Shown piece by piece: positions 4,836-63,956 of a DNA stretch of 64,000 bases (position 1 is the first letter of the stretch; each line of letters begins with the position of its first letter). The position numbers were made by a program, and so were the translations under genes. Where the stretch lies: NCBI GenBank assembly GCA_964574985.1, contig CAZNPH010000001.1, forward strand, positions 166,357 through 230,356. Direction: 5' to 3'. The notes under the pieces were generated by a model. The model ran no database searches, was not told the DNA's origin, and was given only the letters and a program-made list of their open reading frames with translations. This DNA comes from an uncultured Bacteroidaceae bacterium. GTDB lineage: Bacteria > Bacteroidota > Bacteroidia > Bacteroidales > SM23-62.

Positions 4836-5040
4836 GGATTATGTGTTTATGCAAATATACCAAAGATCCCGGAAGAACCTGCAATGTTCATGTTCAACAA
4901 TGGTGTTCAGTGCCGTACAACCAAATGTCCGTTTATGTACGTTTTTTACAGGGATAATATACATGTTTCTTTATGCTAACCATCTGTATCGCTACATTTT
5001 AAAAAATATGGTACGATCTGTGAGGTTTATATTATTTAAT

Positions 5041-5158
5041 GGGGGTTCGCCGGCCAGGACCATGGACAGCCCGTGGGAGGCCGGCAACAAAAGAGCATAA
5101 TGTTAGAACCATCATTGTAAAGTGCTGAATATTAAATGATTAATTCAAAATCATTCGG
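5041..5158 (+). repeat. Intergenic repeat family, copy A (GC-rich core plus AT-rich tail, ends at the start codon of the response regulator)
   Basis: Core GGGGGTTCGCCGGCCAGGACCATGGACAGCCCGTGGGAGGCCGGCAACAAAAG at 5041-5093. The tail aligns with copies C/E/F. GGCAAC (5083) lies 76 nt before ATG 5159. Confidence 0.85.
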
Positions 5159-6975: not shown

Positions 6976-7091
6976 ATGCTTATCACCAATTTTACGGCAA
7001 GCCGCCTCATGAAGACAAAAGGGGGTTCGCGGGCCGGCATGTGGACACCATATAACTAAATTAATTACAAATTAATACAGGATTTTTTATC
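6976..7091 (+). repeat. Intergenic repeat family, copy B (5' box, GCCGCC..AGACAAAAG, truncated core; ends at the sulfatase start codon)
   Basis: ATGCTTATCACCAAT...AAGCCGCCTCATGAAGACAAAAGGGGGTTCGCGGGCCGGC aligns with copies C and F. The right half of the core is missing. Confidence 0.7.
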
Positions 7092-10665: not shown

Positions 10666-10726
10666 TGCTCCCCAAAATTAACGATAATCATGAAAATATT
10701 TCTATTTTTACGTGACTGTTGAAAAA

Positions 10727-11107
10727 ATGACACGGATACGAAGATACAGGAAATACATCCTGCCGCTTATTTTTCCTGCCGTTATCTGGTTGCTGGTTAA
10801 TTTTGCCATCAACCGGCATACGCACCGGTTGAAATCAGGTCACACCATCACCCATGCCCATCCCTTCAACAAGCAAAACAGCGGGAACAAAACAACTCCG
10901 TTTCATTCACATACGGATATCGATATCCTCTTTCTGGAACTCATTACCGGGATTCTCCTGATTGTTAGCTGGGGCATATCCCTGGCCATCCGCAAACAGG
11001 CCGCATTTCATAAAATCATTCCTCAGAATTCAGTAAATACTCCTTCCCGTATACATTTAATTCCTGAAAAAAGAGGACCTCCTGTTCCTCCCCAGTTCAA
11101 ATTCTGA
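10727..11107 (+). CDS. Hypothetical His-rich small membrane protein
   Basis: ATG at 10727 inside the GTG-initiated ORF 10712..11107. Two hydrophobic segments flank HTHRLKSGHTITHAHPF...PFHSHTD. It lies directly upstream of the metal-uptake cluster. Confidence 0.45.
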   Translation: MTRIRRYRKYILPLIFPAVIWLLVNFAINRHTHRLKSGHTITHAHPFNKQNSGNKTTPFHSHTDIDILFLELITGILLIVSWGISLAIRKQAAFHKIIPQNSVNTPSRIHLIPEKRGPPVPPQFKF

Positions 11108-11141: not shown

Positions 11142-11343
11142 ATGACCCCCATCACCGATCAGCCGGCAGGCCGCCGGATATAGACAAAAGGCTATGAATA
11201 TACGGATCAACATCATTTTTACATATGGGGGTTCGCCGGCCAGGACCACGGACAGCCTGTGGGTAGCCGGCAACAAAAGGACAAGCATTAGAGCTGACAT
11301 TATAACGTGCTAAATATTAACTGCTTAACTTAAATATATTCCA
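11142..11343 (+). repeat. Intergenic repeat family, copy C (full length)
   Basis: 5' box ATGACCCCCATCACCGATC (11142), GCCGCC..AGACAAAAG, and core at 11227-11279. The tail has 30/30 nt identical to copy E (11291-11320 vs 41871-41842). GGCAAC (11269) lies 75 nt before GTG 11344. Confidence 0.9.
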
Positions 11344-12621
11344 GTGGAACATAGTATCATATGCATGTTATGCCTGGGTTTGTTCTGGGGAACACTGGCC
11401 GGACAAACACCCCGGCCAGACTCTGTGAGCATCCGGAATCTTGAAAAAAGGATCCGGGAACTCGAATCCAAATGGCATACAAAACAACAGGAGGATGAAC
11501 TGAAGAATCTGCTGGAAGAAGCGAACCGCCTTTCGGCAAAAGAAAAAGCGGAAAAGGCGGATATATCAAAGAAATTCCATAGCGGATTGCGCAGGCAGCA
11601 GGGATTGAACCCGAACATCAGTGTCAGCGGGGATTTTTTCGGAGGCATCAGCAGTTCGAACCATGAACTGATCACCGAACCCGGGGATTTTTCCTATGGC
11701 AACAATGGCGCATATTTGCGGGGCGTCGATCTTTCTTTCATCTCCCCCCTGGATCCTTATTCCCGCGGGAAGGTTTTCCTTTGTGCCACACCCGGGGGTC
11801 TCGATGTCGAAGAAGCTTATATGGATATCCTGAACCTGCCTTTCAGATCGGGCATCAAAGTGGGTATTTTCCGTCCCGAATTCGGTCTGCTGAACCGCTA
11901 CCACGAACATGCCCTGCCTCAGTTCGACCGGCCCCTGGTACTCAGAAATTATTTCGGGCTGGATGGCCTCGCCGGAACCGGTCTGGCCACCAACACCCTG
12001 CTGCCCCGGCTTTTATTTGCCGATGCAAGTTCCATGGACCTTTCCCTGGTCAGCGGAGGAAATGATTTCAGCTTCACCGGGGAAAAAACATTCAATCCCC
12101 TGCTGGTCATCCATTTAAAAAATTATTACGATCTTTCGGAGAGCAGCTACTTTGAATATACCCTGAGTGGAGCAACCGGCAGGAATGATCCTGCAGCCAG
12201 GAACAATACCCGGACTGGCAGTGTGGGTATCCATTACAAATGGATGCCTCCGGAAAGATCCAAATACCGGACTTTCAACTGGAAGACCGAGTTCTTTTTG
12301 TGTTCATATGAAACTGCTGGTGAATCCGTTCATTCTCGCGGATTTTACAGTTCTGTGGAAAACAAGCTCAATGCGCGTTTATGGCTCAGCGGACGGATCG
12401 GTTATTCGGAATATCCTTTCGATAACACGTTGTCGGGATGGAGTTACACTGTATGCATGGATTACTGGCAAAGCGAATGGGTTTTCTTCAGGATCCAGTA
12501 CCAGTATAACGACCGGAGTATAACAGGATACCCGGGCACCACAGGCAGATTGCCGGATGATCATTCACTGATCCTGCAGATCAACTGGGCCATGGGTCCG
12601 CACAAACATGAAGCATACTGA
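11344..12621 (+). CDS. Putative outer-membrane beta-barrel (porin-like) protein with an N-terminal coiled coil
   Basis: 425 aa. Charged coiled-coil segment (RNLEKRIRELESKWHTKQQEDELKNLLEEANRL), then alternating strand-like sequence, with a C-terminal aromatic residue (..HEAY). First gene of the metal-uptake cluster. Start (GTG 11344 or a downstream ATG) uncertain. Confidence 0.6.
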   Translation: MEHSIICMLCLGLFWGTLAGQTPRPDSVSIRNLEKRIRELESKWHTKQQEDELKNLLEEANRLSAKEKAEKADISKKFHSGLRRQQGLNPNISVSGDFFGGISSSNHELITEPGDFSYGNNGAYLRGVDLSFISPLDPYSRGKVFLCATPGGLDVEEAYMDILNLPFRSGIKVGIFRPEFGLLNRYHEHALPQFDRPLVLRNYFGLDGLAGTGLATNTLLPRLLFADASSMDLSLVSGGNDFSFTGEKTFNPLLVIHLKNYYDLSESSYFEYTLSGATGRNDPAARNNTRTGSVGIHYKWMPPERSKYRTFNWKTEFFLCSYETAGESVHSRGFYSSVENKLNARLWLSGRIGYSEYPFDNTLSGWSYTVCMDYWQSEWVFFRIQYQYNDRSITGYPGTTGRLPDDHSLILQINWAMGPHKHEAY

Positions 12622-38336: not shown

Positions 38337-38480
38337 ATGATCAGCAATCAATATACTTTTGCAGGTGCCATGCTTTTACTCATGGCGATAATTTTCGGAT
38401 GCAGCAGGGATCATGCTCCCCCACAGACCGTTAAATTTGATGTTTCACGCCTGGTAAAAACCGTTCAGGATTGTCCATGA
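38337..38480 (+). CDS. Small lipoprotein-like ORF or 5' remnant of a lipoprotein gene
   Basis: 47 aa: MISNQYTFAGAMLLLMAIIFGCSRDHAPP...DCP. It has a lipobox (IFGC). Its TGA (38478-38480) overlaps the first bases of repeat copy D. Below the ORF-track size cutoff. Confidence 0.25.
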   Translation: MISNQYTFAGAMLLLMAIIFGCSRDHAPPQTVKFDVSRLVKTVQDCP

Positions 38481-38599
38481 AACCCTCATCACCGATCCTG
38501 GATGTGGACAGTACGCGGGTGGCCGGCAACAAAAAATCATAATCCTTGAAATGAATATACACCGTATCAATTGCTAAACGATCAAATAAATATTTTCGA
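38477..38599 (+). repeat. Intergenic repeat family, copy D (5' box joined directly to the right half of the core, plus tail)
   Basis: ATGAAACCCTCATCACCGATC...GTGGACAGTACGCGGGTGGCCGGCAACAAAAAATCATAATC aligns with copy F apart from an internal deletion. GGCAAC (38525) lies 75 nt before ATG 38600. Confidence 0.8.
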
Positions 38600-41818: not shown

Positions 41819-41913
41819 CCGAATATATTTGCGTTACCCATTTAATATTTAGCACGTTATAATGTCAGCTCAAAAGATTTGTGTTTTTGTTGCCGGCCTC
41901 CCGCAGGATCATA
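41819..41913 (-). repeat. Intergenic repeat family, copy E (reverse orientation; right half of the core plus tail)
   Basis: The reverse complement reads CCTGCGGGAGGCCGGCAACAAAAACAC...GAGCTGACATTATAACGTGCTAAATATTAAATGGGTAACGCAAATATATTCGG followed by ATG 41818. GGCAAC lies 76 nt before the start codon. Confidence 0.85.
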
Positions 41914-43347
41914 TTATTTTTCAAGCTCGCGGTGGAATATCACAGATTCCAGCCGGTAAACAGATTTTATGTACTGTGCCAGTTTTTCTGCACAATAAAC
42001 CGACCGGTGTTGTCCTCCTGTACAACCAAAAAACACGGATAAATGTTCAAACTGCCTTGCCTGGTATTTTTTCACCGACTGATCGATGATCCCAAAAACA
42101 TGGTTTAAAAATTCACTGACTTCAGGTTTCGATGACATATACCGGATCACTTTTTCGTCCATACCGGTAAAGGATTTATATTCTTCGAGACGGCCCGGAT
42201 TGGGCAGCAATCTGCAGTCAAACACGAATCCGCCGCCATGACCGCTGTAATCTCCGGGCATACCGTGTTTGTATGAAAAACTGGTGATTCTGATCTTCAT
42301 TGGCTGACCATACCCCTTCCCGTACTCCATCAAATCCTGCCGTGCAGACAGTTTTTCAAAACAACGGACCATTTCCGGAACATCTGAAGGAATATGCTTA
42401 TTCTCCAGCAACCAACGGATATTGTTCAGGGCATACGGAATGCTCTCCATAAAAAGCGGTTTGTTCTCGACCATACCGCGCAACCCGTATGTACCCATAA
42501 CCTGCATGATCCTCAGCCAGACCAGGGGATAATAATAACGCATGAAATCCGGTCTGCCGGTCCCGGTTCTTTTCTCCAATTCCTTCAGATAATGTTCCTG
42601 TAATTCCTGTCTCAGTGCAGGCGGCAAATCTGTTTTTGACTCATACAGAAGAGAAGCCACATCATATTGCAGGGGTCCTTTCCTCCCCCCCTGATAATCT
42701 ATAAAATAAACATCATCATGGATCAGCATGATGTTTCTGCTCTGGAAATCCCGGTACATGAAAAATTCTTTTTCTGCCCTGTCAATGAAGCGTGCGAAAC
42801 GCACGAAATCATCTTCCAGACTGTCCTCGTCAAATGATATACCGTGGATCCTGAGTCCAAAGTATTTGAAATAATTCAGATCCCACATGACCGAACGGCT
42901 GTCGAAACTTTCCCTGTGCGTACAAAGAGAATAATCAAGACCTGCATGTCCCTCGGTCTGAAAACAGATCAGCATGGACAAAACCCTTTTGTATATTTCT
43001 GTCAAATTCTCTGAAAAACCTGAAATTTTTTTTTCGTCCGCCACTTTTGCATGCAAAGTTACATCGCCCAGATCCTGAATAAGGTAAACGGATTTTTCCG
43101 GTTTCCGGGCGTAGATCTCCGGCACGGGTAAACCTTTCTTTCTGAAATGATCGGAAAAAGCAAGAAAAGCCCGGGTTTCTTTCCGGTCTTCATGGAATAC
43201 ACCCAGTGCACTCCGTTTCTTTCCCGAAATTCTGCAGTATTTTCGGGCTGATCCTGAACGCGGATCCAGTGACTGCATGTTCCCTGCACTTTCACCCGAC
43301 CATTCCCGGAATAACTCTGCAAGGATATCCTGTAATTCTTTCTGCAT
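41914..43347 (-). CDS. Fusion protein: aminoglycoside-phosphotransferase-fold kinase (AmgK-like) plus RapZ C-terminal-like domain
   Basis: Likely start at ATG 43347 (MQKELQDIL...). Kinase motifs DFQSRNIML and FIDYQGG. The C-terminal ~150 aa aligns to the RapZ CTD (SFSYKHGMP...FVFDCRLLPNP...TGMD...FGCTGGQHRSVYCAEKLAQY). Confidence 0.75.
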   Translation of the reverse strand: MQKELQDILAELFREWSGESAGNMQSLDPRSGSARKYCRISGKKRSALGVFHEDRKETRAFLAFSDHFRKKGLPVPEIYARKPEKSVYLIQDLGDVTLHAKVADEKKISGFSENLTEIYKRVLSMLICFQTEGHAGLDYSLCTHRESFDSRSVMWDLNYFKYFGLRIHGISFDEDSLEDDFVRFARFIDRAEKEFFMYRDFQSRNIMLIHDDVYFIDYQGGRKGPLQYDVASLLYESKTDLPPALRQELQEHYLKELEKRTGTGRPDFMRYYYPLVWLRIMQVMGTYGLRGMVENKPLFMESIPYALNNIRWLLENKHIPSDVPEMVRCFEKLSARQDLMEYGKGYGQPMKIRITSFSYKHGMPGDYSGHGGGFVFDCRLLPNPGRLEEYKSFTGMDEKVIRYMSSKPEVSEFLNHVFGIIDQSVKKYQARQFEHLSVFFGCTGGQHRSVYCAEKLAQYIKSVYRLESVIFHRELEK

Positions 43348-43436
43348 GAAAAAAGTTTCGGTCAGTTCAAATTTAATTATTTCCCCTGCCCCTGCAAAAA
43401 TCAGACACCCCGGCAACAGCATTGTATTAATTTGGT

Positions 43437-43444
43437 TATGTTTG
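43437..43444 (+). promoter_or_regulatory. -7 promoter box TATGTTTG (TAnnTTTG) upstream of aprB
   Basis: Exact consensus match 21 nt upstream of ATG 43466. Confidence 0.4.
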
Positions 43445-43465
43445 TATGTTTTCAATCATTTCGTC

Positions 43466-43908: not shown

Positions 43909-45798
43909 ATGAACATCGGGGATCGATACGAAACCATCACCATGGACACCGACATTCTGATCCTGGGAGGAGGGATGGCTGCATGTGGCGCAGCATGGGA
44001 AGCCGCCCACTGGGCAAAAAAAAACAAACTGAAAATCACCCTGGTGGATAAAGCATCCATGGAACGTTCGGGAGCTGTAGCCATGGGACTGTCCGCCATC
44101 AATCTTTATATGGGCCTCGGCAAAGATGAAAATACAATCGAGGATTATGTCCGTTATGTCAGAAATGATCTGATGGGAGTGGCACGTGACGATCTGGTGG
44201 CCAATATTGCCCGTCATGTGGACTCTTCGGTCCATCTATTTGAAAAATGGGGACTTCCCATATGGAAAAATGATCAGGGTGGCTATGTCCGTGAAGGCCG
44301 GTGGCAAATCATGATCAACGGCGAATCCTACAAGCCGGTCGTCTCAGAAGCCGCAAAAAAAGCACTGGCAGAGCTCGGAGAAGACGGAAAATATCTGGAA
44401 AGAATATTCATTACCGCTCCTCTGGTGAAAGAGGGGAAGATTGCCGGAGCAACCGGTTTCAGTGTAAGGGAAAACAAGTTTTATGTCTTCAGGGCCAAAA
44501 GCGTGATCGTCGCTATGGGCGGTGCTGTTCATATTTTCAAACCCAGGTCTGTGGGGGAAGGACTGGGCAGATCATGGTATCCACCGTTCAATTCAGGAGC
44601 CAGTGCCTATTTCACCATCCGTGCAGGAGCAGAAATGACTTGTCAGGAAGTTCGTTTTGTTCCGGTACGTTTCAAGGATGCATATGGCCCGGTCGGGGCG
44701 TGGTTCCTGCTTTTTCAAGCCAAAACCACCAATGCCCGGGGAGAGGACTATATGCAAAAAAGAGCCGGCGAACTGAAAAAATGGGCGCCTTACGGAACAG
44801 CCAAACCCACTCCTGCCAACCTGAGGAACTACCTGATGATGCAGGAAATCGAAGAGGGAAACCATCCCATCTACATGCGAACCGACGAAGCCATAAAAAG
44901 AATCGCGGCCGGACAACAGGATGAAAAATCCGCAGCCATCCTCCTGAAAAAACTGGAATCGGAAGCCTGGGAAGATTTCCTTGACATGACCATCAGCCAG
45001 GCATTGTTGTGGGCATCGACCAATATCCGTCCTGATAACCAACCCTCCGAGATCGCTGCTTGTGAGCCGTATTTTATCAGTTCTCATTCGGGAGCATCCG
45101 GTGCATGGGTGAGCGGGCCCGTAGACTTTGCTCCTGATCCCTATAAATGGGGGTATCCCAATATGACTACGGTAAACGGACTCTTCGCGGCGGGTGATGC
45201 ATCCGGCGCATCCAGCCATAAATTTTCATCAGGTTCTTTTACCGAGGGAAGGATTGCCGGCAAATCCGCCGCTGCATATGCACTGGATCACCCTGAGTCC
45301 GTTCAAACGGATCAAACGGAAATTACAGGATTGAAGGAACAGGTATTCAAACCCCTTTCCCTATACCATGAGCACTGTGATTATGCAAATGACAAGAATG
45401 TAAATCCGTATTTCATCAAACCGCAGATGTTCATGTTCAGACTGCAAAAAATCATGGATGAATATGCGGGAGGAGTATCCGGTGGTTTCAGAACATCCGG
45501 GCCTCTTTTGAAAAAAGGACTGGAATATCTGGATTTCCTGGAAGAGGATGCCGGAAAGCTGGCAGCAGAAAACACCCACGAATTGATGCGCTGCTGGGAA
45601 AATATCCACCGGCTATGGCAGGCAAGATCCCATATCCTGAGCATGCTGTACCGCGAAGAAACCAGGTGGCCGGGATATTATTTCCGAACCGATTTCCCTC
45701 AATTATCGGAGGATTGGAAAGTGTTTGTCAATTGCAGACGGGAACCCGGAACCGGTCAATGGAGCAATTTCAAGCGGGACATCATTGAAATGGTCTGA
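43909..45798 (+). CDS. aprA: Adenylylsulfate reductase, alpha subunit (FAD flavoprotein)
   Basis: 629 aa. DILILGGGMAACGAAWEA dinucleotide fold and fumarate-reductase-family architecture. Sits immediately after aprB. Confidence 0.92.
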   Translation: MNIGDRYETITMDTDILILGGGMAACGAAWEAAHWAKKNKLKITLVDKASMERSGAVAMGLSAINLYMGLGKDENTIEDYVRYVRNDLMGVARDDLVANIARHVDSSVHLFEKWGLPIWKNDQGGYVREGRWQIMINGESYKPVVSEAAKKALAELGEDGKYLERIFITAPLVKEGKIAGATGFSVRENKFYVFRAKSVIVAMGGAVHIFKPRSVGEGLGRSWYPPFNSGASAYFTIRAGAEMTCQEVRFVPVRFKDAYGPVGAWFLLFQAKTTNARGEDYMQKRAGELKKWAPYGTAKPTPANLRNYLMMQEIEEGNHPIYMRTDEAIKRIAAGQQDEKSAAILLKKLESEAWEDFLDMTISQALLWASTNIRPDNQPSEIAACEPYFISSHSGASGAWVSGPVDFAPDPYKWGYPNMTTVNGLFAAGDASGASSHKFSSGSFTEGRIAGKSAAAYALDHPESVQTDQTEITGLKEQVFKPLSLYHEHCDYANDKNVNPYFIKPQMFMFRLQKIMDEYAGGVSGGFRTSGPLLKKGLEYLDFLEEDAGKLAAENTHELMRCWENIHRLWQARSHILSMLYREETRWPGYYFRTDFPQLSEDWKVFVNCRREPGTGQWSNFKRDIIEMV

Positions 45799-45808
45799 GA
45801 AAAAGCAA

Positions 45809-47068
45809 GTGAATAATAATGCGAATTCATCAAGAATAGTTGTAGCCGGGGGAGGAATCAGCGGAATCACCACCGCCATCGAGATCGCTGAAACAGGTTA
45901 TGAAGTCCTGCTGATCGAAAAGAATCCCGGTCTGGGCGGACGAGTGGCCAGAATGAACAAATATTTCCCGAAGCTTTGTCCCCCGGCATGTGGCCTGGAG
46001 ATCAATTTCCGGAGAATCCGCAACAATTCCAGGATATATCTGCTTACCTCCACGGAAATAATTGCGATTAAAGGGAAAGAAGGGAACTTCAGGGTCCGGC
46101 TCCGTACCGGACCGGACCGGATCAATGAGAATTGCACGGCCTGCGGGTTATGCGCCGAAGTCTGTCCCGTGGAAACAAAGGACGAATTCAATTACGGGAT
46201 GTCTGTACACAAAGCCGTCTACCTGTCTCATGAAATGACCTATCCTTACCGGTATACCATTGATGCATCCGTCTGCCCGGGAGAAACATGCGGACGCTGT
46301 GAGGCGGTTTGCCCGTACGGTGCCGTCGACCTGAAAGCCCGGGCCATGGAAAGGGAAATCCATGTTGCGGCTGTCGTATTTGCCACAGGATGGGAACCCT
46401 TTGATCCAAAAGCCATTCCTGACTATCAGTTTGGAAAACATCCCGACGTAATTACCAATGTCATGATGGAAAGACTTATTGCACCGGAAGGTCCTACCGG
46501 CGGCAAGGTACTTTGTCCGTCCGACAGGGGAAAACCCGGTTTCATTGCTTTTGTCCAGTGTACGGGTTCCAGGGATGAACAATATCTCCCCTATTGTTCG
46601 GGAGTATGTTGTTCCTCCTCCCTGAAAGAAGCCATGATTTTCCTGGAACAAAATCCTGAGGGAAAAGCAGTCATATATTATATTGATCTCAGGGTAACCG
46701 GCCGGGGGGAAGATTTCCTGAAAAAGGCGGTCATTCACCCCAACATTGAATTGAAAAAAGGCAGGGTCGGCAGGATTCTAACCAATGAAAAAACGGGAAA
46801 ACCTGTGATCGAGACAGAAAATATCCTTTCCGGCAAAAAGATCAGAAAACAGGCGGACCTGGTTGTGCTGGCCACCGGAATGGTCCCGGCTGAAATCAAA
46901 CTGGAAGGCATACAATCCGGCCCCAAAGGATTTCAGACTTCTTCAATCGAAGGAATTTATATCGCCGGATGTGCCGGGAAACCCATGGATGTATCATCCT
47001 CACTGAAAGATGCAACAGGCACTGCCCTGAAAGCCATACAGTCACTGAGTACAATGAAACGTTCATGA
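45809..47068 (+). CDS. qmoA: Quinone-modifying oxidoreductase subunit QmoA (HdrA-like flavoprotein)
   Basis: RIVVAGGGISGITTAIEIAETGYEVLLIEK FAD fold and CxxCxxCxxxCP motifs. I favour GTG 45809 as the start; the alternative ATG 45725 would overlap aprA by 74 nt. Confidence 0.83.
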   Translation: MNNNANSSRIVVAGGGISGITTAIEIAETGYEVLLIEKNPGLGGRVARMNKYFPKLCPPACGLEINFRRIRNNSRIYLLTSTEIIAIKGKEGNFRVRLRTGPDRINENCTACGLCAEVCPVETKDEFNYGMSVHKAVYLSHEMTYPYRYTIDASVCPGETCGRCEAVCPYGAVDLKARAMEREIHVAAVVFATGWEPFDPKAIPDYQFGKHPDVITNVMMERLIAPEGPTGGKVLCPSDRGKPGFIAFVQCTGSRDEQYLPYCSGVCCSSSLKEAMIFLEQNPEGKAVIYYIDLRVTGRGEDFLKKAVIHPNIELKKGRVGRILTNEKTGKPVIETENILSGKKIRKQADLVVLATGMVPAEIKLEGIQSGPKGFQTSSIEGIYIAGCAGKPMDVSSSLKDATGTALKAIQSLSTMKRS

Positions 47069-49209
47069 TGTCTCTTTCCAAAAAGACAGCGGTTTATATC
47101 TGTACGGGTTGTCGTATCGGGGATGCCCTGGATACCAGTAAAATTCTCAATGAACTGCCGGAGGAATTTTCCCTTTCTGTATGCAAATCGCATAACCATT
47201 TATGCAGCCTGGATGGAGTACGTATGATTGAAAAAGATATTCAGGATGACGGAATCCAGTCTTTGGTTCTGGCGGCCTGTTCGGCCAGATACAAAACCGG
47301 GATTTTCAGCTTTGACCCTGAAATACCGGTTGAACGGGTCAACCTGAGGGAACAAGTTGCATGGACTCAGAACCCGGACAACGAAGATACCCGGATGATG
47401 GCCATGGATTATCTCCGTATGGGTATCAACCGTGCGGATACCACCTCCGTGCCCGGGGGATATGTTCCAGGGGAACTGAACGCAGATATTCTGGTTATCG
47501 GCGCAGGAATTTCCGGATTAACCGCTGCCATTGAAATATCCAAAACAGGATACAGGGTCATACTCATTGAAAAAGAAAGATCTCCGGGTGGTTTCGCGGC
47601 CAGACTCCACAGGCAGCTTCCTGCAGACCCTCCGTGGAATAAGCCGGTTTTGCCGGAGATCCATTCCCTCATAGAAAAAGTGGTTAACAGCGATAGAATT
47701 GAATTGCATTGCTCCTCAGAGGTCAGAAGCATAGGGGGTGAACCCGGAAATTTCATTATCGAATACCTGGATACAGGAAATACATGTACCATACGGGCAG
47801 GGGCGATCATTCAGGCCACAGGATGGAAACCATATGATCCTCTAAAAATAAAGGAATACAATTACGGCAGCAGTCCGGATATCATCACCAACATTCAATT
47901 CGAGGAAATGGCCCGGGAAGGAGCCATTAAACGGCCTTCCGACGGCATGAAGATCAGAAGCATCCTTTTTGTTCAATGCGCCGGTTCACGGAATAAGGAC
48001 CACCTGCCCTATTGTTCAACGTACTGTTGTAATGTTACCCTCAAACAGGCACTGTACGTAAGGGAAACCAATGCCGATGCACAAATATTCATTGTATACA
48101 AGGACATCCGGACACCCGGTGCAGGAGAATTCTTTTACCATGAAGTTCAGAAAGAAGACAATATTTTTATGACCAAAGGGGAAGTCAAAAGGATTTACGC
48201 GGGGGATGGAGTTCTGCACACAGAAACAATGGATGCCCTGATGGGTAAAGACATATGCCTGAAAACCGATCTGGTGGTGCTGGCCATGGGTATGGTCCCC
48301 GAAGCTTCAGGAAGCCTTCATCTGAATTACAGGCAGGGACCGGAATTGCCGGATCTGAAATACGGGTTTCCTGACTCACATTACATTTGTTTCCCCTATG
48401 AGACCAGACGTACGGGGATTTATTCAACGGGTACGGTAAGGGCTCCGATGGATATTGTCTCCTCAAAGGAGGATGCTGCCGGTGCCGCCCTGAAAGCAAT
48501 CCAGTGCTTTGAATCCACAAAGCGGGGAGAATCAGTTCATCCCAGATCCGGAGACAGGAGTTTTCCCGAACTGTACATGCCCAGGTGCACCGACTGCAAG
48601 CGTTGTACCGAAGAATGCCCTTTCGGTGTGTATGACGAAACCGAAAATGGCACTCCCATTCTGAATCCTTCCCGGTGCCGCCGCTGCGGCATTTGTATGG
48701 GATCATGCCCTGAGCGGATCATTAATTTTGCCGATTTTTCGATCCAATCCGTATCGGCCATGATCAAATCAATTGAGATCCCACCCGAAACGGAAGAAAA
48801 ATTCCGGATCCTGGTTTTTGCATGCGAAAACGACGCCATACCGGCATTCGACATGGCCGGACATAAAAAACTCCGGTACAGTCCGTTTATCAGGATCATC
48901 CCGGTCCGCTGCATTGGAAACGTCAATGCGGTTTGGATATCCGATGCTTTTTCCCAGGGATTCGACGGAGTACTGCAGATCGGATGTAAACCCGGGGAAG
49001 ATTATCAGTGTCATTTCATTCTGGGCAGTGAACTGACCCAAATACGGAACAAAAATATACAGGATACCCTGAACACGATGATGCTTGAACCTGAACGTGT
49101 ACAGACCGAATTCATTGAGATCACCGAGTATTACCGCATTCCGGAAATCATAAACGGATTTGCCGAACAGATCAGAATAATCGGGGCGAATCCTTTCAAA
49201 GGCATGTGA
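47065..49209 (+). CDS. qmoB: QmoB (HdrA-like flavoprotein with ferredoxin and MvhD-like C-terminal domains)
   Basis: Start at ATG 47065 (ATGA overlap with the qmoA stop). DILVIGAGISGLTAAIEISKTGYRVILIEK, two 4Fe-4S motifs (CKRCTEECP, CGICMGSCP), and an MvhD-like tail (ILVFACENDA...IPVRCIGNV). Confidence 0.87.
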   Translation: MMSLSKKTAVYICTGCRIGDALDTSKILNELPEEFSLSVCKSHNHLCSLDGVRMIEKDIQDDGIQSLVLAACSARYKTGIFSFDPEIPVERVNLREQVAWTQNPDNEDTRMMAMDYLRMGINRADTTSVPGGYVPGELNADILVIGAGISGLTAAIEISKTGYRVILIEKERSPGGFAARLHRQLPADPPWNKPVLPEIHSLIEKVVNSDRIELHCSSEVRSIGGEPGNFIIEYLDTGNTCTIRAGAIIQATGWKPYDPLKIKEYNYGSSPDIITNIQFEEMAREGAIKRPSDGMKIRSILFVQCAGSRNKDHLPYCSTYCCNVTLKQALYVRETNADAQIFIVYKDIRTPGAGEFFYHEVQKEDNIFMTKGEVKRIYAGDGVLHTETMDALMGKDICLKTDLVVLAMGMVPEASGSLHLNYRQGPELPDLKYGFPDSHYICFPYETRRTGIYSTGTVRAPMDIVSSKEDAAGAALKAIQCFESTKRGESVHPRSGDRSFPELYMPRCTDCKRCTEECPFGVYDETENGTPILNPSRCRRCGICMGSCPERIINFADFSIQSVSAMIKSIEIPPETEEKFRILVFACENDAIPAFDMAGHKKLRYSPFIRIIPVRCIGNVNAVWISDAFSQGFDGVLQIGCKPGEDYQCHFILGSELTQIRNKNIQDTLNTMMLEPERVQTEFIEITEYYRIPEIINGFAEQIRIIGANPFKGM

Positions 49210-50799: not shown

Positions 50800-50888
50800 T
50801 GGTGCCCAGGACAAGAATCGAACTTGCACTCCCGATTGCGGGAACATGGCCCTCAACCATGCGCGTCTACCTGTTCCGCCACCTGGGC
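50800..50888 (-). tRNA. tRNA-Leu (anticodon GAG), CCA encoded
   Basis: The reverse complement folds as a type-II cloverleaf. Acceptor GCCCAGG/CCTGGGC, anticodon stem CATGG/CCATG with loop TTGAGGG, long variable arm (CCCG/CGGG), T-loop TTCGATT, 3' ACCA. Confidence 0.9.
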
Positions 50889-50910
50889 GTCAGGGGGAAT
50901 ATACACTCAG

Positions 50911-50994
50911 TGCCCAGAACAGGACTCGAACCTGCACGATGTTGCCATCACTGGTCCCTGAAACCAGCGCGTCTACCAATTCCGCCATCTGGGC
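50911..50994 (-). tRNA. tRNA-Leu (anticodon CAG), CCA not encoded
   Basis: Acceptor GCCCAGA/TCTGGGC, anticodon stem CTGGT/ACCAG with loop TTCAGGG, variable arm GATG/CATC, T-loop TTCGAGT. Confidence 0.9.
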
Positions 50995-58338: not shown

Positions 58339-59664
58339 ATGAAGATACTCAGGCATAAATATTTCAGGTTTGCATACATTTCTTTGATCTATATCCTTTT
58401 TGTCTTGTGGTTGGAGTGCTATTGGTTGCTGGCCGGACTCCCCATCATTGCGGATATTTTTCTTACCGGATTTATCAACTGGGAACAGCTGAAAATAAGC
58501 AAAAGAGGGAAGAATCATCCCGGACTGGAATGGTTGAAAGCCATCCTGTTTGCACTGATTACCGTTCTGTTGATCCGGGGGCTTCTGCTGGAGGCATATA
58601 CCATACCCACTCCTTCCATGGAAAAAACCCTGATGGTGGGAGATTACATTTTTTTGAGCAAAATCAGTTACGGACCCAGGATGCCCATGACCCCCCTTTC
58701 AGTTCCTTTTGTCCACAACCGGCTGTCTTTTGCCAACAACATCCGGTCCTTCCTGACAAATCCGCAACTCTCCTACAAGCGGCTGGCGGGATTGTCGGAG
58801 ATCGAACCCAACGATGTGGTCATATTCAATTTTCCGGAGGGTGATACCGTCGTACTCCAGTTTCCCAATCAAAGCTATTACGTCCTGATCAGAAAATACG
58901 GAAGAAAAAGCATTCATGATCAATATGATATAATCTACCGGCCCGTAGATAAAAGGGATCATTTTGTCAAGCGTTGTGTGGGCCTTCCTGGAAACCGGTT
59001 TGAAATACGGCACGGAAATGTATATGTAAATGGAAAAAGGACCGAAGATCCTCCCTTGCTGCAGTTCAGTCATTATGTCAAAACCCGGGGCAGACAGATC
59101 GATCCGGAAATATTGGGGGAATTGCATATTGACAACGCACACCGGTATTTCGATCCGGAGAAATCCAGTTATATCATGCCCCTCACCATGAAGACCGCTG
59201 GGATTCTCAGAACACTGCCGGAGGTACAGACGGTTACCAAACTCGAGAACACCAACAGAAAAGTCTCCTACCGGTCGGTATTCCCTTACAGCCCATATTA
59301 CAAATGGACCGAGGACAATTATGGTCCCCTGGAGATCCCGGCCCGGGGAAAAACAGTACGACTGACCCTGGAAAATCTCCCCTTGTACAAACGGATCATT
59401 GCCGTATATGAGCATAATGAACTATCGGTAAACGATGGAGTCATACACATCAATGGCATTCCTTCCAACAGGTACACTTTCAAGATGAATTATTTTTTCA
59501 TGCTTGGCGACAACCGGCACAATTCAGCCGATTCAAGATTCTGGGGATTTGTGCCTGAAGACCATATTGAAGGAAAGGCCGTATTCGTATGGCTGTCCCT
59601 GAAGACGGGGGCCAAACTCCCCAATAGATTCCGCTGGAAAAAAATGTTTAAAATTATTGAGTAA
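58339..59664 (+). CDS. lepB: Signal peptidase I
   Basis: 441 aa. Catalytic Ser context IPTPSMEKTLMVGD, KRCVGLPG and GDNRHNSADSRFWGFVP. Confidence 0.88.
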   Translation: MKILRHKYFRFAYISLIYILFVLWLECYWLLAGLPIIADIFLTGFINWEQLKISKRGKNHPGLEWLKAILFALITVLLIRGLLLEAYTIPTPSMEKTLMVGDYIFLSKISYGPRMPMTPLSVPFVHNRLSFANNIRSFLTNPQLSYKRLAGLSEIEPNDVVIFNFPEGDTVVLQFPNQSYYVLIRKYGRKSIHDQYDIIYRPVDKRDHFVKRCVGLPGNRFEIRHGNVYVNGKRTEDPPLLQFSHYVKTRGRQIDPEILGELHIDNAHRYFDPEKSSYIMPLTMKTAGILRTLPEVQTVTKLENTNRKVSYRSVFPYSPYYKWTEDNYGPLEIPARGKTVRLTLENLPLYKRIIAVYEHNELSVNDGVIHINGIPSNRYTFKMNYFFMLGDNRHNSADSRFWGFVPEDHIEGKAVFVWLSLKTGAKLPNRFRWKKMFKIIE

Positions 59665-59688
59665 CTTTAAAAAAATCATTTCAATCAG

Positions 59689-61089
59689 ATGAATTGGCTC
59701 AACGTATTCAGAAATAAATATTTCAAATTTTCGGCCGCCGCAATCCTTTATATCTTCTGGGTTATCTGGCTGGACAATTACTGGTTTCTGGCCGGACTCG
59801 CCGTGATCTTTGACATATACGTGACCCGGAAGGTGAACTGGTCTTTCTGGAAAAAGAGGGGTCAGAAAAACAGTGCTTTTATTGAATGGCTGGATGCATT
59901 GATATTTGCGGTTATTGCCGTGACCCTCATCAATATTTTCATTTTCCAGAACTACCGCATCCCCAGTCCGTCCATGGAAAAAACCCTCCTTGTAGGAGAT
60001 CATCTGGCGGTAAGTAAGGTAGCCTATGGGCCCAGACTCCCCATAACGCCCCTTACCATACCATTTACCCAGAACACGCTTCCATTGCTGGGAAGAACAT
60101 ATCTTGACTGGGTCCAGTGGCCCTACAAGCGGCTGGCCGGATTCGACCGGGTAAAGAATGACGATATTGTGGTATTTAACTTCCCTGCGGGAGATACGGT
60201 TATCCTGCAGAACACAGCAGCCAGCTACTATTCGATCCTCAGGGATCATGCATTTGAATTCAGGAACCGGGATATGATGGAAAAAAAACGCATCAGGAGC
60301 TGGAATGAATATCTGGATATTGCGCGGGACTATGCCTGGCATACATACGATATTGTCACCCGCCCGGTGGACCGCAGGGACAATTATATCAAAAGGTGTA
60401 TCGGGATCCCCGGAGATTCCATTGAGGTCGTGCACGGACAGGTATTTGTCAACGGCCGGAAACAAAAAGAGATCCCCGGACTGCAGCATCACTACGAGGT
60501 GATCACCAGCGGAACCCCGATCAATCCCAGGGCCCTTGAAAGGCTCGGCATATCACGTGACGAATGGAGGATGGGACAAAACTACACATATTCACTGCCC
60601 CTGACCGATGAAAATCGCAGGAAGATCGAAAAATTCTCCAATGTGGTGGCCATCAAAAAAAACGAAACACCGGACAATGTCTACAATTTTCAGATTTTTC
60701 CGCACGATCCCCGTTTTCCCTGGACACTGGATAACTTTGGACCGCTCTGGGTACCGGCAAAAGGGGTGACTATCGGACTGAACGTTGAAAACCTCCCTCT
60801 ATATGAAAGGATCATCGATGTCTGTGAAAACAATGATCTCACATTGGAAAATGACCGGATAAAAATCAACGGGGAATACGTCACCAGCTATACCTTCAAA
60901 ATGAACTATTATTTCATGATGGGGGACAACCGTCATTCATCGGCCGATTCAAGATACTGGGGATTTGTTCCCGAAGATCATATCGTCGGGGAACCCCTGC
61001 TGATATGGCTTTCTATTGACAAAAACAAAAGATTTCCGGAAAAGGTCCGCTGGAAAAGGATCTTACGGTCTGCCTATCATGAAAATTAA
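59689..61089 (+). CDS. lepB: Signal peptidase I (tandem paralog)
   Basis: 466 aa. IPSPSMEKTLLVGD, KRCIGIPG and GDNRHSSADSRYWGFVP. Confidence 0.88.
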   Translation: MNWLNVFRNKYFKFSAAAILYIFWVIWLDNYWFLAGLAVIFDIYVTRKVNWSFWKKRGQKNSAFIEWLDALIFAVIAVTLINIFIFQNYRIPSPSMEKTLLVGDHLAVSKVAYGPRLPITPLTIPFTQNTLPLLGRTYLDWVQWPYKRLAGFDRVKNDDIVVFNFPAGDTVILQNTAASYYSILRDHAFEFRNRDMMEKKRIRSWNEYLDIARDYAWHTYDIVTRPVDRRDNYIKRCIGIPGDSIEVVHGQVFVNGRKQKEIPGLQHHYEVITSGTPINPRALERLGISRDEWRMGQNYTYSLPLTDENRRKIEKFSNVVAIKKNETPDNVYNFQIFPHDPRFPWTLDNFGPLWVPAKGVTIGLNVENLPLYERIIDVCENNDLTLENDRIKINGEYVTSYTFKMNYYFMMGDNRHSSADSRYWGFVPEDHIVGEPLLIWLSIDKNKRFPEKVRWKRILRSAYHEN

Positions 61090-63750: not shown

Positions 63751-63956
63751 ATGAAACCCCTATCACCGATCTGTCAACTTGCCGCCTTTCCAAGACAAAA
63801 AACAATGAAAATAATAGCCAGCAAAGGATTTGCAGATGGGGGATCGCCGGCCCGGCAGGTGGACAGCATGCGGGTGGCCGGCAGCAAAAAATCATAATCT
63901 CTGAACCGATAATGTAACAGTTTTATAATTTGATGTTTAACTAAAATATATTACTC
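63751..63956 (+). repeat. Intergenic repeat family, copy F (full length)
   Basis: 5' box ATGAAACCCCTATCACCGATC, GCCGCC..AGACAAAAA, core GGGGGATCGCCGGCC...GGGTGGCCGGCAGCAAAAA (63838-), and a tail ending AAAATATATTACTC. GGCAGC (63880) lies 77 nt before GTG 63957. Confidence 0.85.

Follow-up and report, generated by a model that had tools for sequence, protein, structure and literature searches.

Why should stretches of closely related DNA lie directly in front of the start codons of genes that have nothing to do with one another? We encountered this arrangement in a 64,000-nt stretch of DNA from an uncultured Bacteroidaceae bacterium (Bacteroidales lineage SM23-62; assembly GCA_964574985.1, contig CAZNPH010000001.1, positions 166,357 to 230,356), referred to here as the window. 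An initial annotation, made from the sequence alone, had listed six intergenic copies, each ending on a start codon, and had proposed a spreading promoter/5'-UTR cassette, a MITE-like element or a multi-copy cis-regulatory RNA. We asked whether the family is real, what its unit looks like, and which of these readings the evidence favors.

Results

Six copies of a repeat are co-oriented with the genes that follow

The observation was confirmed: all six copies are present at or near the positions first given. The core pattern GYGGGWRGCCGGCARCAAAA matched the window without mismatches at 5073, 11259, 38515, 41885(-) and 63870, compared to 0.09 hits expected by chance. GGGGGWTCGCSGGCC was found in copies A, B, C and F, and ATCACCGATC in copies C, D and F. 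A general repeat search and a profile search with nhmmer recovered these same six loci and no others. The distance from GGCARC to the start codon is 76, 75, 75, 76 and 77 nt, as originally claimed (66, 65, 65, 66 and 67 nt after the 20-mer, plus 10). All six copies are co-oriented with a gene, and the unit ends 2-3 nt before the start codon, with this tail-start junction being kept in five of the six. The claimed 30/30 identity between copies C and E is also present and lies within an inverted repeat of the window.

We then examined the downstream genes with Pfam, which supported the response regulator, the sulfatase and the NTP-transferase assignments, and placed ZnuA one gene further on from copy C. 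The "porin-like" protein and the 171-aa protein have no Pfam hit, and the "larC-like" assignment rests on 14 residues only. Several details of the initial annotation required correction. Copy B is a remnant whose last 40 nt are not clearly homologous to the family tail, and copy A may extend in degenerate form. The "5' box" and the left edge of the "GC-rich core" are the two strands of one predicted helix, and the whole unit reads as an open reading frame in the family consensus. This helix, the 64-codon frame that starts at the left-end ATG, the ATGAAA junction and the presence of the family in other genomes had all been missed.

Table 1. Copies of the repeat in the window and structural features of copy C. 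P1 and P2 are predicted helices.
Feature	Position (strand)	Description	Support
Copy C	11142..11343 (+)	Full-length unit (202 nt); frame broken by a 2-nt and a 1-nt deletion; precedes GTG 11344 of a 425-aa protein without Pfam hit, followed by ZnuA and ABC-3 genes	nhmmer E=1.9e-51 over the whole model; multiple alignments; frame analysis
Copy C, P1 5' strand	11144..11152 (+)	GACCCCCAT, the "5' box"; left-end ATG at 11142-11144	Pairs with 11225-11233 in the MFE fold and in alignment folds; compensatory variants CCCTC/GAGGG, CCCCC/GGGGG and CCTTC/GAAGG
Copy C, unpaired motif	11182..11191 (+)	AGACAAAAGG, inside the P1-closed loop; follows the local hairpin CCGGC/GCCGG at 11163-11177	Nearly invariant columns 44-50 of the multiple alignment; hairpin seen in folds
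Copy C, P1 3' strand	11225..11233 (+)	ATGGGGGTT, left edge of the "GC-rich core"	MFE and alignment folds; pairing statistics
Copy C, hairpin P2	11235..11271 (+)	Outer stem GCCGGC/GCCGGC (11235-11240 with 11266-11271); inner stem CCACGG/CTGTGG (11246-11251 with 11257-11262)	Outer stem invariant except for one G-C to A-U double change in L074; inner stem G.U-rich in most copies, converted to Watson-Crick pairs in copy C and L047
Copy C, linker and tail	11272..11343 (+)	A-rich linker (AACAAAAG) and AT-rich tail ending in CTTAACTTAAATATATTC (11324-11341) plus CA; host start GTG at 11344-11346	Multiple alignment; 30/30 identity with copy E
Copy F	63751..63956 (+)	Full-length unit; P1 63755-63763 with 63836-63844; P2 outer stem 63846-63852 with 63876-63882; frame open for 48 codons (63751-63897); precedes GTG 63957 (MKILYYECFSGISG..., cut by the window end)	nhmmer E=5.7e-57; frame analysis
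Copy A	5037..5158 (+)	Keeps P1 3' strand (5039-5047), complete P2 (5049-5085) and tail; 5' third lost or degenerate, possibly reaching back to about 4973; precedes ATG 5159 of a response regulator	nhmmer model positions 84-203; multiple alignment; Pfam
Copy B	6976..7053 (+)	Remnant: left ATG, 5' box remnant, GCCGCC..AGACAAAAG and left half of P2; P1b, right half of P2 and recognisable tail deleted; sulfatase ATG at 7092	Pattern search; multiple alignment; nhmmer only E=0.016 for 7014-7051
Copy D	38477..38599 (+)	Internal deletion fusing the 5' box to the right half of P2, in frame (21-codon ORF, 38477-38542); tail intact; left ATG overlaps the TGA stop of a 36-aa lipoprotein-like ORF (38370-38480); precedes ATG 38600 of a 171-aa protein	nhmmer; sequence and frame inspection
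Copy E	41819..41907 (-)	Lacks the 5' part; keeps right half of P2 plus tail; inside an operon, between an AmgK-like kinase gene (stop codon at 41914-41916) and the MurU-like gene (ATG 41818)	Repeat search; nhmmer; Pfam; two Logan contigs of the same organism end inside this tail

The family occurs before unrelated genes in other Bacteroidales

We next searched other assemblies and found about 25 further distinct copies in Bacteroidales MAGs and metagenomes, designated here by L numbers. These copies also precede unrelated genes, and across the family the downstream genes include ribosomal-protein genes, arginine genes, sulfatases and sigma factors. Of the 27 copies that retain a tail, 23 have a real ORF starting exactly at the canonical position, whereas L013, L083 and L005 have no long ORF there. 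Many copies lie inside operons, directly after an upstream stop codon: at rplC-rplD, rplN-rplX, infA-rpmJ, nqrA-nqrB and argE-argH, and at the amgK-murU junction that is copy E. One copy lies between an ECF sigma factor gene and its downstream gene with an ATGA overlap, and in L076 and L077 the upstream genes overlap by 4 nt. In five independent sites, the left ATGA supplies the stop codon of an upstream gene that overlaps it. Searches of viral contigs, plasmids and phages gave no match, exact look-ups of two window proteins returned no record, and literature searches for MITE, REP or start-codon repeats in Bacteroidetes found no description of such an element.

The unit carries two predicted helices and a conserved tail

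The complete unit is roughly 208 nt long and begins ATGAAA|CCCTCAT. The 9-bp helix P1 closes a loop of about 100 nt and is directly followed by the GC-rich hairpin P2 and then by AACAAAAAA. The unit ends in an AT-rich tail, ..GCTGATAAC..TGTTTAACTTAAATATTTTC-NNN, directly followed by the (A/G/T)TG of the host gene; the tail-start junction can be summarized as TTTAACTTAAATATTTTC-NNN-start. P1 and P2 are 97-98% paired over 16 copies, and four pairs carry double changes, compared to 0.9 expected in shuffles (1 of 500 shuffles reaches four). Sliding the partner columns dropped pairing to 34-45%. This covariation rests on few independent lineages. The divergent copy L082 keeps an extended P1 and rebuilds P2 as GCCAGC/GCTGGC, and L017 keeps P1 as a bare triloop hairpin. 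Additional helices (P1a, P1b and P3) are present in many copies, but in shifting registers and with mostly weak z-scores; we claim only P1 and P2. Pairing of an internal GAAAATAT with the tail ATATTTTC, which could sequester the tail, is compensated in copy C but broken in L076 and copy F by our inspection of the alignment, and we did not adopt it. A hammerhead-like CUGAUGA occurs in L018, but that stretch is not conserved in the other copies and we treat it as coincidence.

The consensus contains an open frame, but individual copies decay neutrally

The family consensus is a single open frame of 64 codons, which runs from the left ATG to a TAA 10 nt before the host start. The consensus has no stops in frame 0, compared to 8 and 5 in the other frames, a difference that we estimate at about 0.001 per frame. 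Two insertions in the frame are of 27 nt and 3 nt and thus preserve it. Individual copies, in contrast, accumulate stops, frameshifts, internal deletions between short direct repeats and losses of the 5' part, yet nearly all keep the tail-start junction. Variation shows no codon periodicity (entropy 0.62/0.61/0.69 by codon position, p=0.2), and new stops are not depleted in frame 0 (14, against 21 and 9 in the other frames). L028, which lies in a ribosomal operon, has three stops. AlphaFold gave a pLDDT of 59 for the product and predicted the most conserved residues to be disordered.

Sequences at the ends of the element

To examine how copies are joined to their surroundings, we compared their flanks. 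The motif (A/T)TGAAA lies immediately 5' of CCCTCAT in about 21 of 23 copies that retain a left end. In the argE-argH locus, comparison of filled and unfilled sites shows a second copy inserted right after (A/G)TGAAA; this tandem insertion lies exactly after GTGAAA. The second codon of host genes is AAR in 15 of 25 cases, compared to 10 of 44 in the window background (p=0.002). One copy sits at an internal in-frame ATGAAA, five codons before the end of a HicB-like ORF. The flanking repeat is ambiguous: it is 5-6 nt (TGAAA) in the one event seen by comparing L065 with L078, a perfect 21 nt in L028, and elsewhere the left and right hexamers differ. The left ATGAAA is more conserved than the right one, so it may simply be part of the element. 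For the window copies no true empty site was found, the nearest MurU homologue outside the source organism being 59% identical.

The left end ATGAAACCCTCATCA and the right end ..TTAAATATTTTCNNNATG are not reverse complements of each other. The only long inverted repeat, P1, is internal, with its 3' strand about 110 nt before the right end. A variable hairpin (P1a) lies near the left end in many copies, but we saw no convincing hairpin near the right end. No transposase, reverse transcriptase or recombinase was found in the window or next to any copy, and in roughly 0.5 Mb of fetched loci there was neither a partner gene nor a longer element in which the 5' box and the tail are separated by a gene.

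The copies lack promoter, terminator and known RNA signatures

No Bacteroidetes -7 box (TAnnTTTG, with a -33 TTTG) lies inside any of the six window copies, although the window contains 35 such boxes, several of them at native promoters 10-45 nt before the start. There is no excess of sigma-70-like sites. In L027, a perfect -7 box (TATTTTTG) lies upstream of the left ATG of the element, where the native leader would be. A terminator scan of the copies found none; P2 is followed by AACAAAAAA on the sense strand, and on the antisense strand the T-run precedes the hairpin. At Rfam 15 gathering thresholds the window yielded only two tRNAs, and searches of copy C and L018 at E-values up to 10 gave only chance hits, with no match to known transposon-associated RNAs.

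Discussion

Our results partly support the interpretation given in the initial annotation. The repeat is a genuine dispersed, orientation-locked family that abuts the start codons of unrelated genes, is not a simple operator and matches no Rfam family; of the three readings proposed, the MITE-like element comes closest, the promoter cassette is not supported and the cis-regulatory RNA is disfavored. We consider it somewhat more likely than not that the six loci are two complete (C and F) and four decayed (A, B, D and E) copies of a non-autonomous insertion element, restricted to a group of uncultured Bacteroidales and tolerated at gene starts. The analysis itself establishes the architecture of the unit, its constant orientation with the host gene, its occurrence at unrelated genes and operon junctions, the ATGA overlaps, the open consensus frame and the decay of individual copies. 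The rest of the model is inference, and mobility in particular is inferred from distribution only. In this view, the element integrates at an NTGAAR hexamer in one orientation, leaving ATGAAA on its left and NTGAAR on its right. Insertions elsewhere would destroy genes and be purged, such that survivors pile up at gene starts whose second codon is Lys. The element would be co-transcribed with the host gene, and the old initiation site, or coupling from the upstream gene, would now start the element's own frame. Ribosomes translating that frame would melt P1 and P2 and terminate 10 nt before the regenerated start, allowing re-initiation. The AU-rich, unstructured tail would also allow direct initiation in a phylum that does not use Shine-Dalgarno pairing. 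This translated "relay" is not backed by selection within copies, and the -3 position before the host start is C rather than the A favored in Bacteroidetes. The mobilizing enzyme is not encoded in the window, and the candidates are a single-strand (IS200/IS605-like) route or a copy-choice/template-switch route.

One alternative is a multi-copy cis-regulatory RNA leader (riboswitch-like, a thermosensor, or the target of an RNA-binding protein or sRNA) that places many genes under one post-transcriptional control, with P1 and P2 as the sensor and the tail as the regulated initiation region. The sense-strand orientation, the fixed distance to the start codon, the conserved unpaired motifs (AGACAAAAGG, AACAAAAAA and GCTGATAAC), the compensatory changes and the G.U-rich inner stem, which can pair only on the sense strand, are consistent with this possibility, as is an alternative local hairpin in some copies (CCTCATC/GATGAGG) that would compete with P1. 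However, four of the six window copies lack P1 and/or half of P2, the downstream genes share no function, no Rfam family matches, the proposed tail pairing is not kept consistently, and the high density, the tandem copy and the breaking of assemblies at the element also speak against it, so we regard this reading as unlikely. A portable promoter/5'-UTR cassette, which would supply transcription start signals to whatever gene it lands in front of, is less likely still: copies A, B and F, and probably C and D, do lie in divergent intergenic regions where the downstream gene needs a promoter, but the missing -7 boxes and the many operon-internal copies argue against it.

We find it similarly improbable that the repeat is a small-protein gene family (64 aa, MKPSSL..EGSPARIVDSMWEAGNKK..LITYCLT) whose DNA similarity merely follows from recent duplication. 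The consensus frame is open, the 27-nt and 3-nt indels are in frame, and 93 ORFs have been called in public data, many of exactly 64 aa despite 50-60% identity. Yet almost every cluster is a singleton, only 39 representatives exist among 1.84 billion proteins, there is no Pfam hit, and neither third-position variation nor stop-codon depletion indicates purifying selection. Moreover, the most conserved segment, predicted to be unstructured, coincides exactly with P1 and P2, and conservation continues past the stop codon up to the host start. A further possibility, which differs from our model only in how the element moves, is an IS200/IS605-type derivative (PATE) moved as single-stranded DNA by a Y1 transposase encoded elsewhere, inserting 3' of TGAAA without target duplication and with a right end that also finishes in TGAAA; the folded part might double as a TnpB guide-RNA scaffold, with the first bases of the host gene as the guide. 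The absence of terminal inverted repeats, the strand-specific insertion next to a fixed left motif, the tandem insertion and the hairpins maintained on one strand would fit. Nevertheless, no tnpA or tnpB was found near any copy or in the window, there is no clear subterminal hairpin at the right end, and the 21-nt duplication in L028 does not fit this chemistry, leaving this route doubtful.

More speculatively, and in our estimate unlikely on present evidence, the family could represent a previously undescribed class of bacterial mobile element that colonizes translation start sites, regenerates the start codon and carries a relay frame running from the displaced start through its own folded RNA. 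Host genes would then stay translated, even translationally coupled ribosomal-protein genes. In that case, copies lacking the 5' part, deletions between short direct repeats and flanking duplications of 5 to 21 nt at microhomologies would point to a copy-choice or RNA-templated (SINE-like) mode of spread instead of a classical transposase.

Comparison with known repeats shows where this element differs. Like Rickettsia palindromic elements (PMC10969869), it is a short non-autonomous repeat with a stable predicted fold, an open consensus frame through which insertion into expressed regions is tolerated, and sites at unrelated genes. Those elements insert inside coding regions and are translated as part of the host protein, whereas here, in intact copies, the frame ends in TAA or TAG and would hand over to a separate start codon 10 nt later; only one in-frame fusion to an upstream ORF was seen, in L013. 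There is no sequence relation, and the phylum differs. Correia elements (CREE/NEMIS) of Neisseria and ERIC/BOX-type repeats are dispersed 100-200-nt sequences that are co-transcribed with neighboring genes, fold in the mRNA and can change expression of the adjacent gene (PMC2649163, PMC2229807). Correia elements have terminal inverted repeats, a TA target duplication, either orientation and promoter-creating ends, in contrast to the single orientation, the fixed position at the start codon and the lack of inverted ends and promoter boxes described here. Classical MITEs, derived from DDE transposases, share the small size, multiple copies and absence of an internal transposase gene, but have terminal inverted repeats. 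PATEs also lack such repeats, insert strand-specifically next to a short motif and rely on hairpins formed on one strand, but here no partner transposase was seen, the end hairpins are not demonstrated and one copy has a 21-nt duplication, and a whole-element open frame and start-codon adjacency are not known features of PATEs. REP/BIME/REPIN elements are likewise high-copy, extragenic and contain a GC-rich hairpin, but REPs are 20-40 bp, carry GTAG/CGTC heads, typically lie downstream of genes and occur in both orientations (PMC3733652). The GTTTAAC in the tail resembles an attC core, but the copies are scattered among housekeeping genes and ribosomal operons with no integrase in the window, which excludes an integron. 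Finally, the spacing of the stop codon from the next start and the ATGA overlaps correspond to the geometry of translational coupling in upstream ORFs and leader peptides, although here coupling is only inferred and the frame, which many copies have lost, belongs to a dispersed repeat rather than to a gene-specific leader.

If our reading holds, the family shows how selfish DNA can live in gene-dense bacterial genomes at the one place thought least tolerant of 200 nt of structured insert, by rebuilding the start codon and possibly relaying ribosomes. It would provide a natural test bed for re-initiation and leader requirements in Bacteroidota, and could yield a portable translational coupler for engineering. 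The repeats also have practical consequences. They break short-read assemblies, as seen for the Logan contigs that end inside copy E, and they create chimeric contigs, as in L071, which is a chimera of two copies. They can mislead start-codon annotation, and they seed dozens of spurious hypothetical-protein calls, nearly all of the 93 called small ORFs being singletons.

Copies of the repeat within the window

The initial annotation described six related intergenic copies, each directed at and ending on a start codon, and this observation held: all six loci are real and they are the only copies in the window. We designate them copies A to F, which precede genes for a response regulator (A), a sulfatase (B), a porin-like protein (C), a hypothetical protein (D), a MurU-like nucleotidyltransferase (E) and a LarC-like protein (F). 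The right-half core pattern GYGGGWRGCCGGCARCAAAA occurs five times without mismatch, against 0.09 occurrences expected by chance. A pattern for the left half of the core detected copies A, B, C and F, and a pattern for the 5' box detected copies C, D and F. Repeat finding and an nhmmer profile search recovered the same six loci. The distances from GGCA(A/G)C to the start codon (76, 75, 75, 76 and 77 nt in copies A, C, D, E and F) agreed with those in the initial annotation, and the claimed 30-nt identity between copies C and E is also present. Pfam searches confirmed the response regulator, the sulfatase, the NTP-transferase and the neighboring ZnuA/ABC-3 genes. However, copy B is only a remnant whose last 40 nt are not clearly homologous to the family, and copy A may continue in degenerate form to about position 4973. 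The surrounding DNA is ordinary chromosome of an anaerobic Bacteroidota-type organism, which holds CTP synthase, YidC, TrmD, ThrRS, MnmA, signal peptidases and Hdr-like genes, and no mobile-element gene was found within the window.

Distribution of the family

We next asked whether the repeat occurs in other genomes. Single scans of GTDB genomes and of JGI metagenomes found true relatives only in uncultured Bacteroidales-type MAGs and in sediment or marsh metagenomes. Neither collection contained the source genome, although its MurU protein is on record from an NCBI contig and Logan assemblies. Treating the unit as a peptide gave 14 and then 93 called small ORFs among 5.8 billion clusters, nearly all of them singletons, and an exhaustive profile search found 39 representatives among 1.84 billion proteins. 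In the latter search, two very long proteins (P0214, 1273 aa, and P0223, 3943 aa) matched short parts of the 64-aa profile 12-14 times each, which is probably a repetitive or low-complexity coincidence. Retrieval of twelve contigs added further loci, giving about 30 distinct copies in total (copies outside the window carry L numbers). In 23 of the 27 copies with a tail, a substantial ORF starts exactly at the canonical position. The downstream genes are unrelated and include argR, argH, nqrB, rpmJ, rplX, rplD, the gene that follows an ECF sigma-factor gene, a gene for a MORN-repeat protein, a putative peptidase gene (judged from its sequence only) and others. Several of the sites lie inside operons. 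At loci L009 and L013, a contig binned as "Candidatus Bathyarchaeia" is identical over the element and its flanks to a contig binned as "Rikenellaceae", which is likely due to mis-binning of the same Bacteroidales sequence.

Anatomy of the repeat unit

To define the architecture of the unit, we aligned the copies and examined the pairing between columns. The left end is ATGAAA|CCCTCAT. A 9-bp helix (P1) joins the "5' box" of the initial annotation to the left edge of its "core" and closes a loop of about 100 nt. This loop holds a variable hairpin, the invariant AGACAAAAGG and a second hairpin, and one subfamily carries an extra 27-nt hairpin there. Hairpin P2 follows directly after P1, with an outer stem GCCGGCC/GGCCGGC and an inner stem. 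The unit then continues with AACAAAAAA, a variable hairpin, TAATGTGCTGATAAC, TGTTTAACTTAAATATTTTC, three variable bases and the (A/G/T)TG of the host gene.

P1 and P2 are 97-98% paired, and four pairs carry changes on both sides, against 0.9 expected in shuffles (1 of 500 shuffles reached four). Sliding the partner columns collapsed pairing to 34-45%. The variants are informative. P1 occurs as CCCTC/GAGGG, as CCCCC/GGGGG in the window and as CCTTC/GAAGG in copies L074 and L075, and L074 also changes the first P2 pair from G-C to A-U. The most divergent copy, L082, lengthens P1 and rebuilds P2 as GCCAGC/GCTGGC, whereas copy L017 retains P1 as a bare triloop hairpin with the interior deleted. 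The inner P2 stem is made of G.U pairs in most copies and is converted to Watson-Crick pairs in copy C and copy L047. This can only work on the sense strand, which leans towards RNA, or at least a sense-strand fold. The other helices shift register and are not claimed.

The reading frame

From the left ATG, the family consensus is open for 64 codons and ends at the TAA inside ..AACTTAAATAT.., 10 nt before the host start. The other two frames contain 8 and 5 stops. At about 0.1 stops per codon, we estimate the chance of an open 64-codon frame to be about 0.001. Several copies keep exactly 64 codons at 50-60% identity, with two different tail subtypes, and the 27-nt and 3-nt insertions are in frame.

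We then tested whether the frame shows signs of encoding a functional peptide, and three results argue against this possibility. Variation shows no codon periodicity (entropy 0.62/0.61/0.69 by codon position, p = 0.2). In copies found by DNA pattern, which is unbiased with respect to ORFs, new stops are no rarer in frame 0 than in the other frames (14 against 21 and 9). AlphaFold gave a pLDDT of 59 and the most conserved residues, which are exactly the P1 3' strand and P2, are predicted to be unstructured. Thus, the frame is a property of the founding or master sequence, the peptide is probably not a functional protein, and resident copies decay neutrally.

Junctions with host genes

The left junction is (A/T)TGAAA in about 21 of 23 copies. 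At five independent sites the upstream gene ends in the TGA of that ATGA; these are the ECF sigma gene in L073, the upstream gene in L076/L077, argE in L065/L078/L027 and the small lipoprotein-like ORF before copy D. In L079, the upstream gene stops 5 nt before the ATG. The right-hand hexamer is more variable, but its second codon is AAR in 15 of 25 host genes, against 10 of 44 in the window background (p = 0.002).

A natural comparison of filled and unfilled sites was provided by L078, which has one copy before argH, and L065, which has the same copy followed by a second, internally deleted copy inserted immediately after (A/G)TGAAA and ending in ..CTCTTATGAAA. In L013, the element sits at an internal in-frame ATGAAA, five codons before the stop of a weakly HicB/UPF0150-like ORF. 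That ORF overlaps (TTGA) an ORF that looks HicA-like by eye but has no Pfam hit, and the insertion replaces the last five residues of the HicB/UPF0150-like ORF with the 64-residue frame of the element. This site suggests that the target is the hexamer and not start-codon function as such. The copy at L028 (the same locus as L052), between rplN and rplX, is flanked by a perfect 21-nt direct repeat, AATAAACAGAGAATGAAGAAA, composed of the native spacer plus ATGAAGAAA (the native spacer plus the first three rplX codons). No other copy shows this repeat, which does not fit a fixed-stagger transposase.

Internal deletions join short direct repeats, namely ATCACCGATC with TTCGCCGGCC in copy D and TCATCAT in the second L065 copy. 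Several copies (A, E and L012) lack the 5' part but keep the 3' end. Independent Logan assemblies of the source organism (L080 from SRR7048220 and L081 from SRR7048224) both end 58 nt upstream of the murU-like gene, inside the tail of copy E, and the repeat therefore breaks short-read assemblies. The metagenome contig L071 joins the left part of the L027 (argR) copy to the right part of the L042 copy, and is either the result of recombination between copies or an assembly chimera caused by the repeat.

Comparison with known elements and interpretation

We considered whether the repeat could be a recognized RNA family, a regulatory signal or a previously described element. No Rfam family matched, and there was no phage, plasmid or viral match. 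No Bacteroidetes -7 box lies in any copy, although native promoters in the window show it clearly, and in L027 a perfect box lies upstream of the left ATG of the element. There is no terminator, because the A-run follows P2 on the sense strand, and the repeat does not lie in cassette arrays. Reviews of prokaryotic MITEs and small repeats mention ORF-bearing and in-frame elements (RPE, ERIC, BOX), but describe none tied to start codons and none in Bacteroidetes, and other literature searches were empty. Small non-autonomous dispersed repeats are already known, but we could not find a description of one with this architecture at the start codon.

The high local density, the unrelated host genes (including ribosomal operons), the neutral decay of everything except the tail-start junction, the tandem and chimeric copies and the sequence-defined junction together point to selfish inserted DNA and not to a regulon signal. 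The initial annotation had proposed a spreading promoter/5'-UTR cassette, a MITE-like element or a multi-copy cis-regulatory RNA in preference to a simple shared operator, and this interpretation is partly supported. Our analysis establishes the family, its orientation and position, helices P1 and P2, the consensus frame and the ATGAAA junction. By contrast, integration at NTGAAR with subsequent purging of disruptive insertions, co-transcription with the host gene, and the idea that the frame relays ribosomes through the fold to the regenerated start, either from the displaced start or from an upstream coupled gene, are inferences. The relay idea would explain why the founder is open from the very first base to 10 nt before the host start, and how coupled junctions tolerate the insert, but it is not supported by selection within resident copies. 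With respect to mobilization, an IS200/IS605-like single-strand route would fit the fixed left motif and the strand specificity, whereas a copy-choice or RNA-templated route would better fit the 21-nt duplication, the copies lacking the 5' part and the microhomology junctions. We hold the core reading, a selfish insertion element at gene starts, with moderate confidence; the fuller proposal, which adds the relay function of the frame and a non-classical way of spreading, remains doubtful.

Neighboring genes and additional loci

Several genes in the window carry features of their own. The small lipoprotein-type ORF whose TGA stop overlaps the left ATG of copy D appears to be unannotated (MLLLMAIIFGC...) and is preceded by a canonical Bacteroidetes -7 box, TACTTTTG. 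The gene directly upstream of the MurU-like nucleotidyltransferase encodes a protein that combines an APH/AmgK-like kinase domain with a C-terminal RapZ_C (PF22740) domain, an unusual fusion in a MurNAc-recycling pair. The His-rich ORF immediately upstream of copy C and the porin-like/ZnuA/ABC-3 metal-uptake genes has no Pfam hit and is possibly a metal-related small membrane protein. Direct repeats D8 and D16 are spaced about 1420-1460 nt apart and indicate an internal duplication across two ORFs, one of them HdrA/FlpD-like. The two tandem signal peptidase I genes are paralogous and account for repeat families D2, D9 and D20, and the two tandem tRNA-Leu genes are 21 nt apart and about 80% identical over 45 nt.

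Positions of features in the window and of individual copies at other loci
Sequence	Position	Strand	Feature
Window	10712-11107	+	His-rich ORF, 131 aa
Window	38354		-7 box before the small lipoprotein-type ORF
Window	38370-38480	+	Small lipoprotein-type ORF, 36 aa
Window	41914-43455	-	APH/AmgK-like and RapZ_C domain protein, 513 aa
Window	45725-47068		ORF in the internal duplication indicated by direct repeats D8 and D16
Window	46549-48505	+	Direct repeats D8 and D16
Window	46969-49209		HdrA/FlpD-like ORF in the internal duplication indicated by direct repeats D8 and D16
Window	50800-50994	-	Two tRNA-Leu genes (anticodons GAG and CAG)
Window	58339-61089	+	Two signal peptidase I genes (441 and 466 aa)
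L009	4260-4476		Element and flanks shared with L013
L013	3684-3900		Element and flanks shared with L009
L013	3825-4260	reverse	Element at the internal ATGAAA of the HicB/UPF0150-like ORF
L028	5592-5830	reverse	Element with flanking 21-nt direct repeat
L071	517-730		Chimera of the L027 and L042 copies
L080 and L081	1		Assembly end inside the tail of copy E
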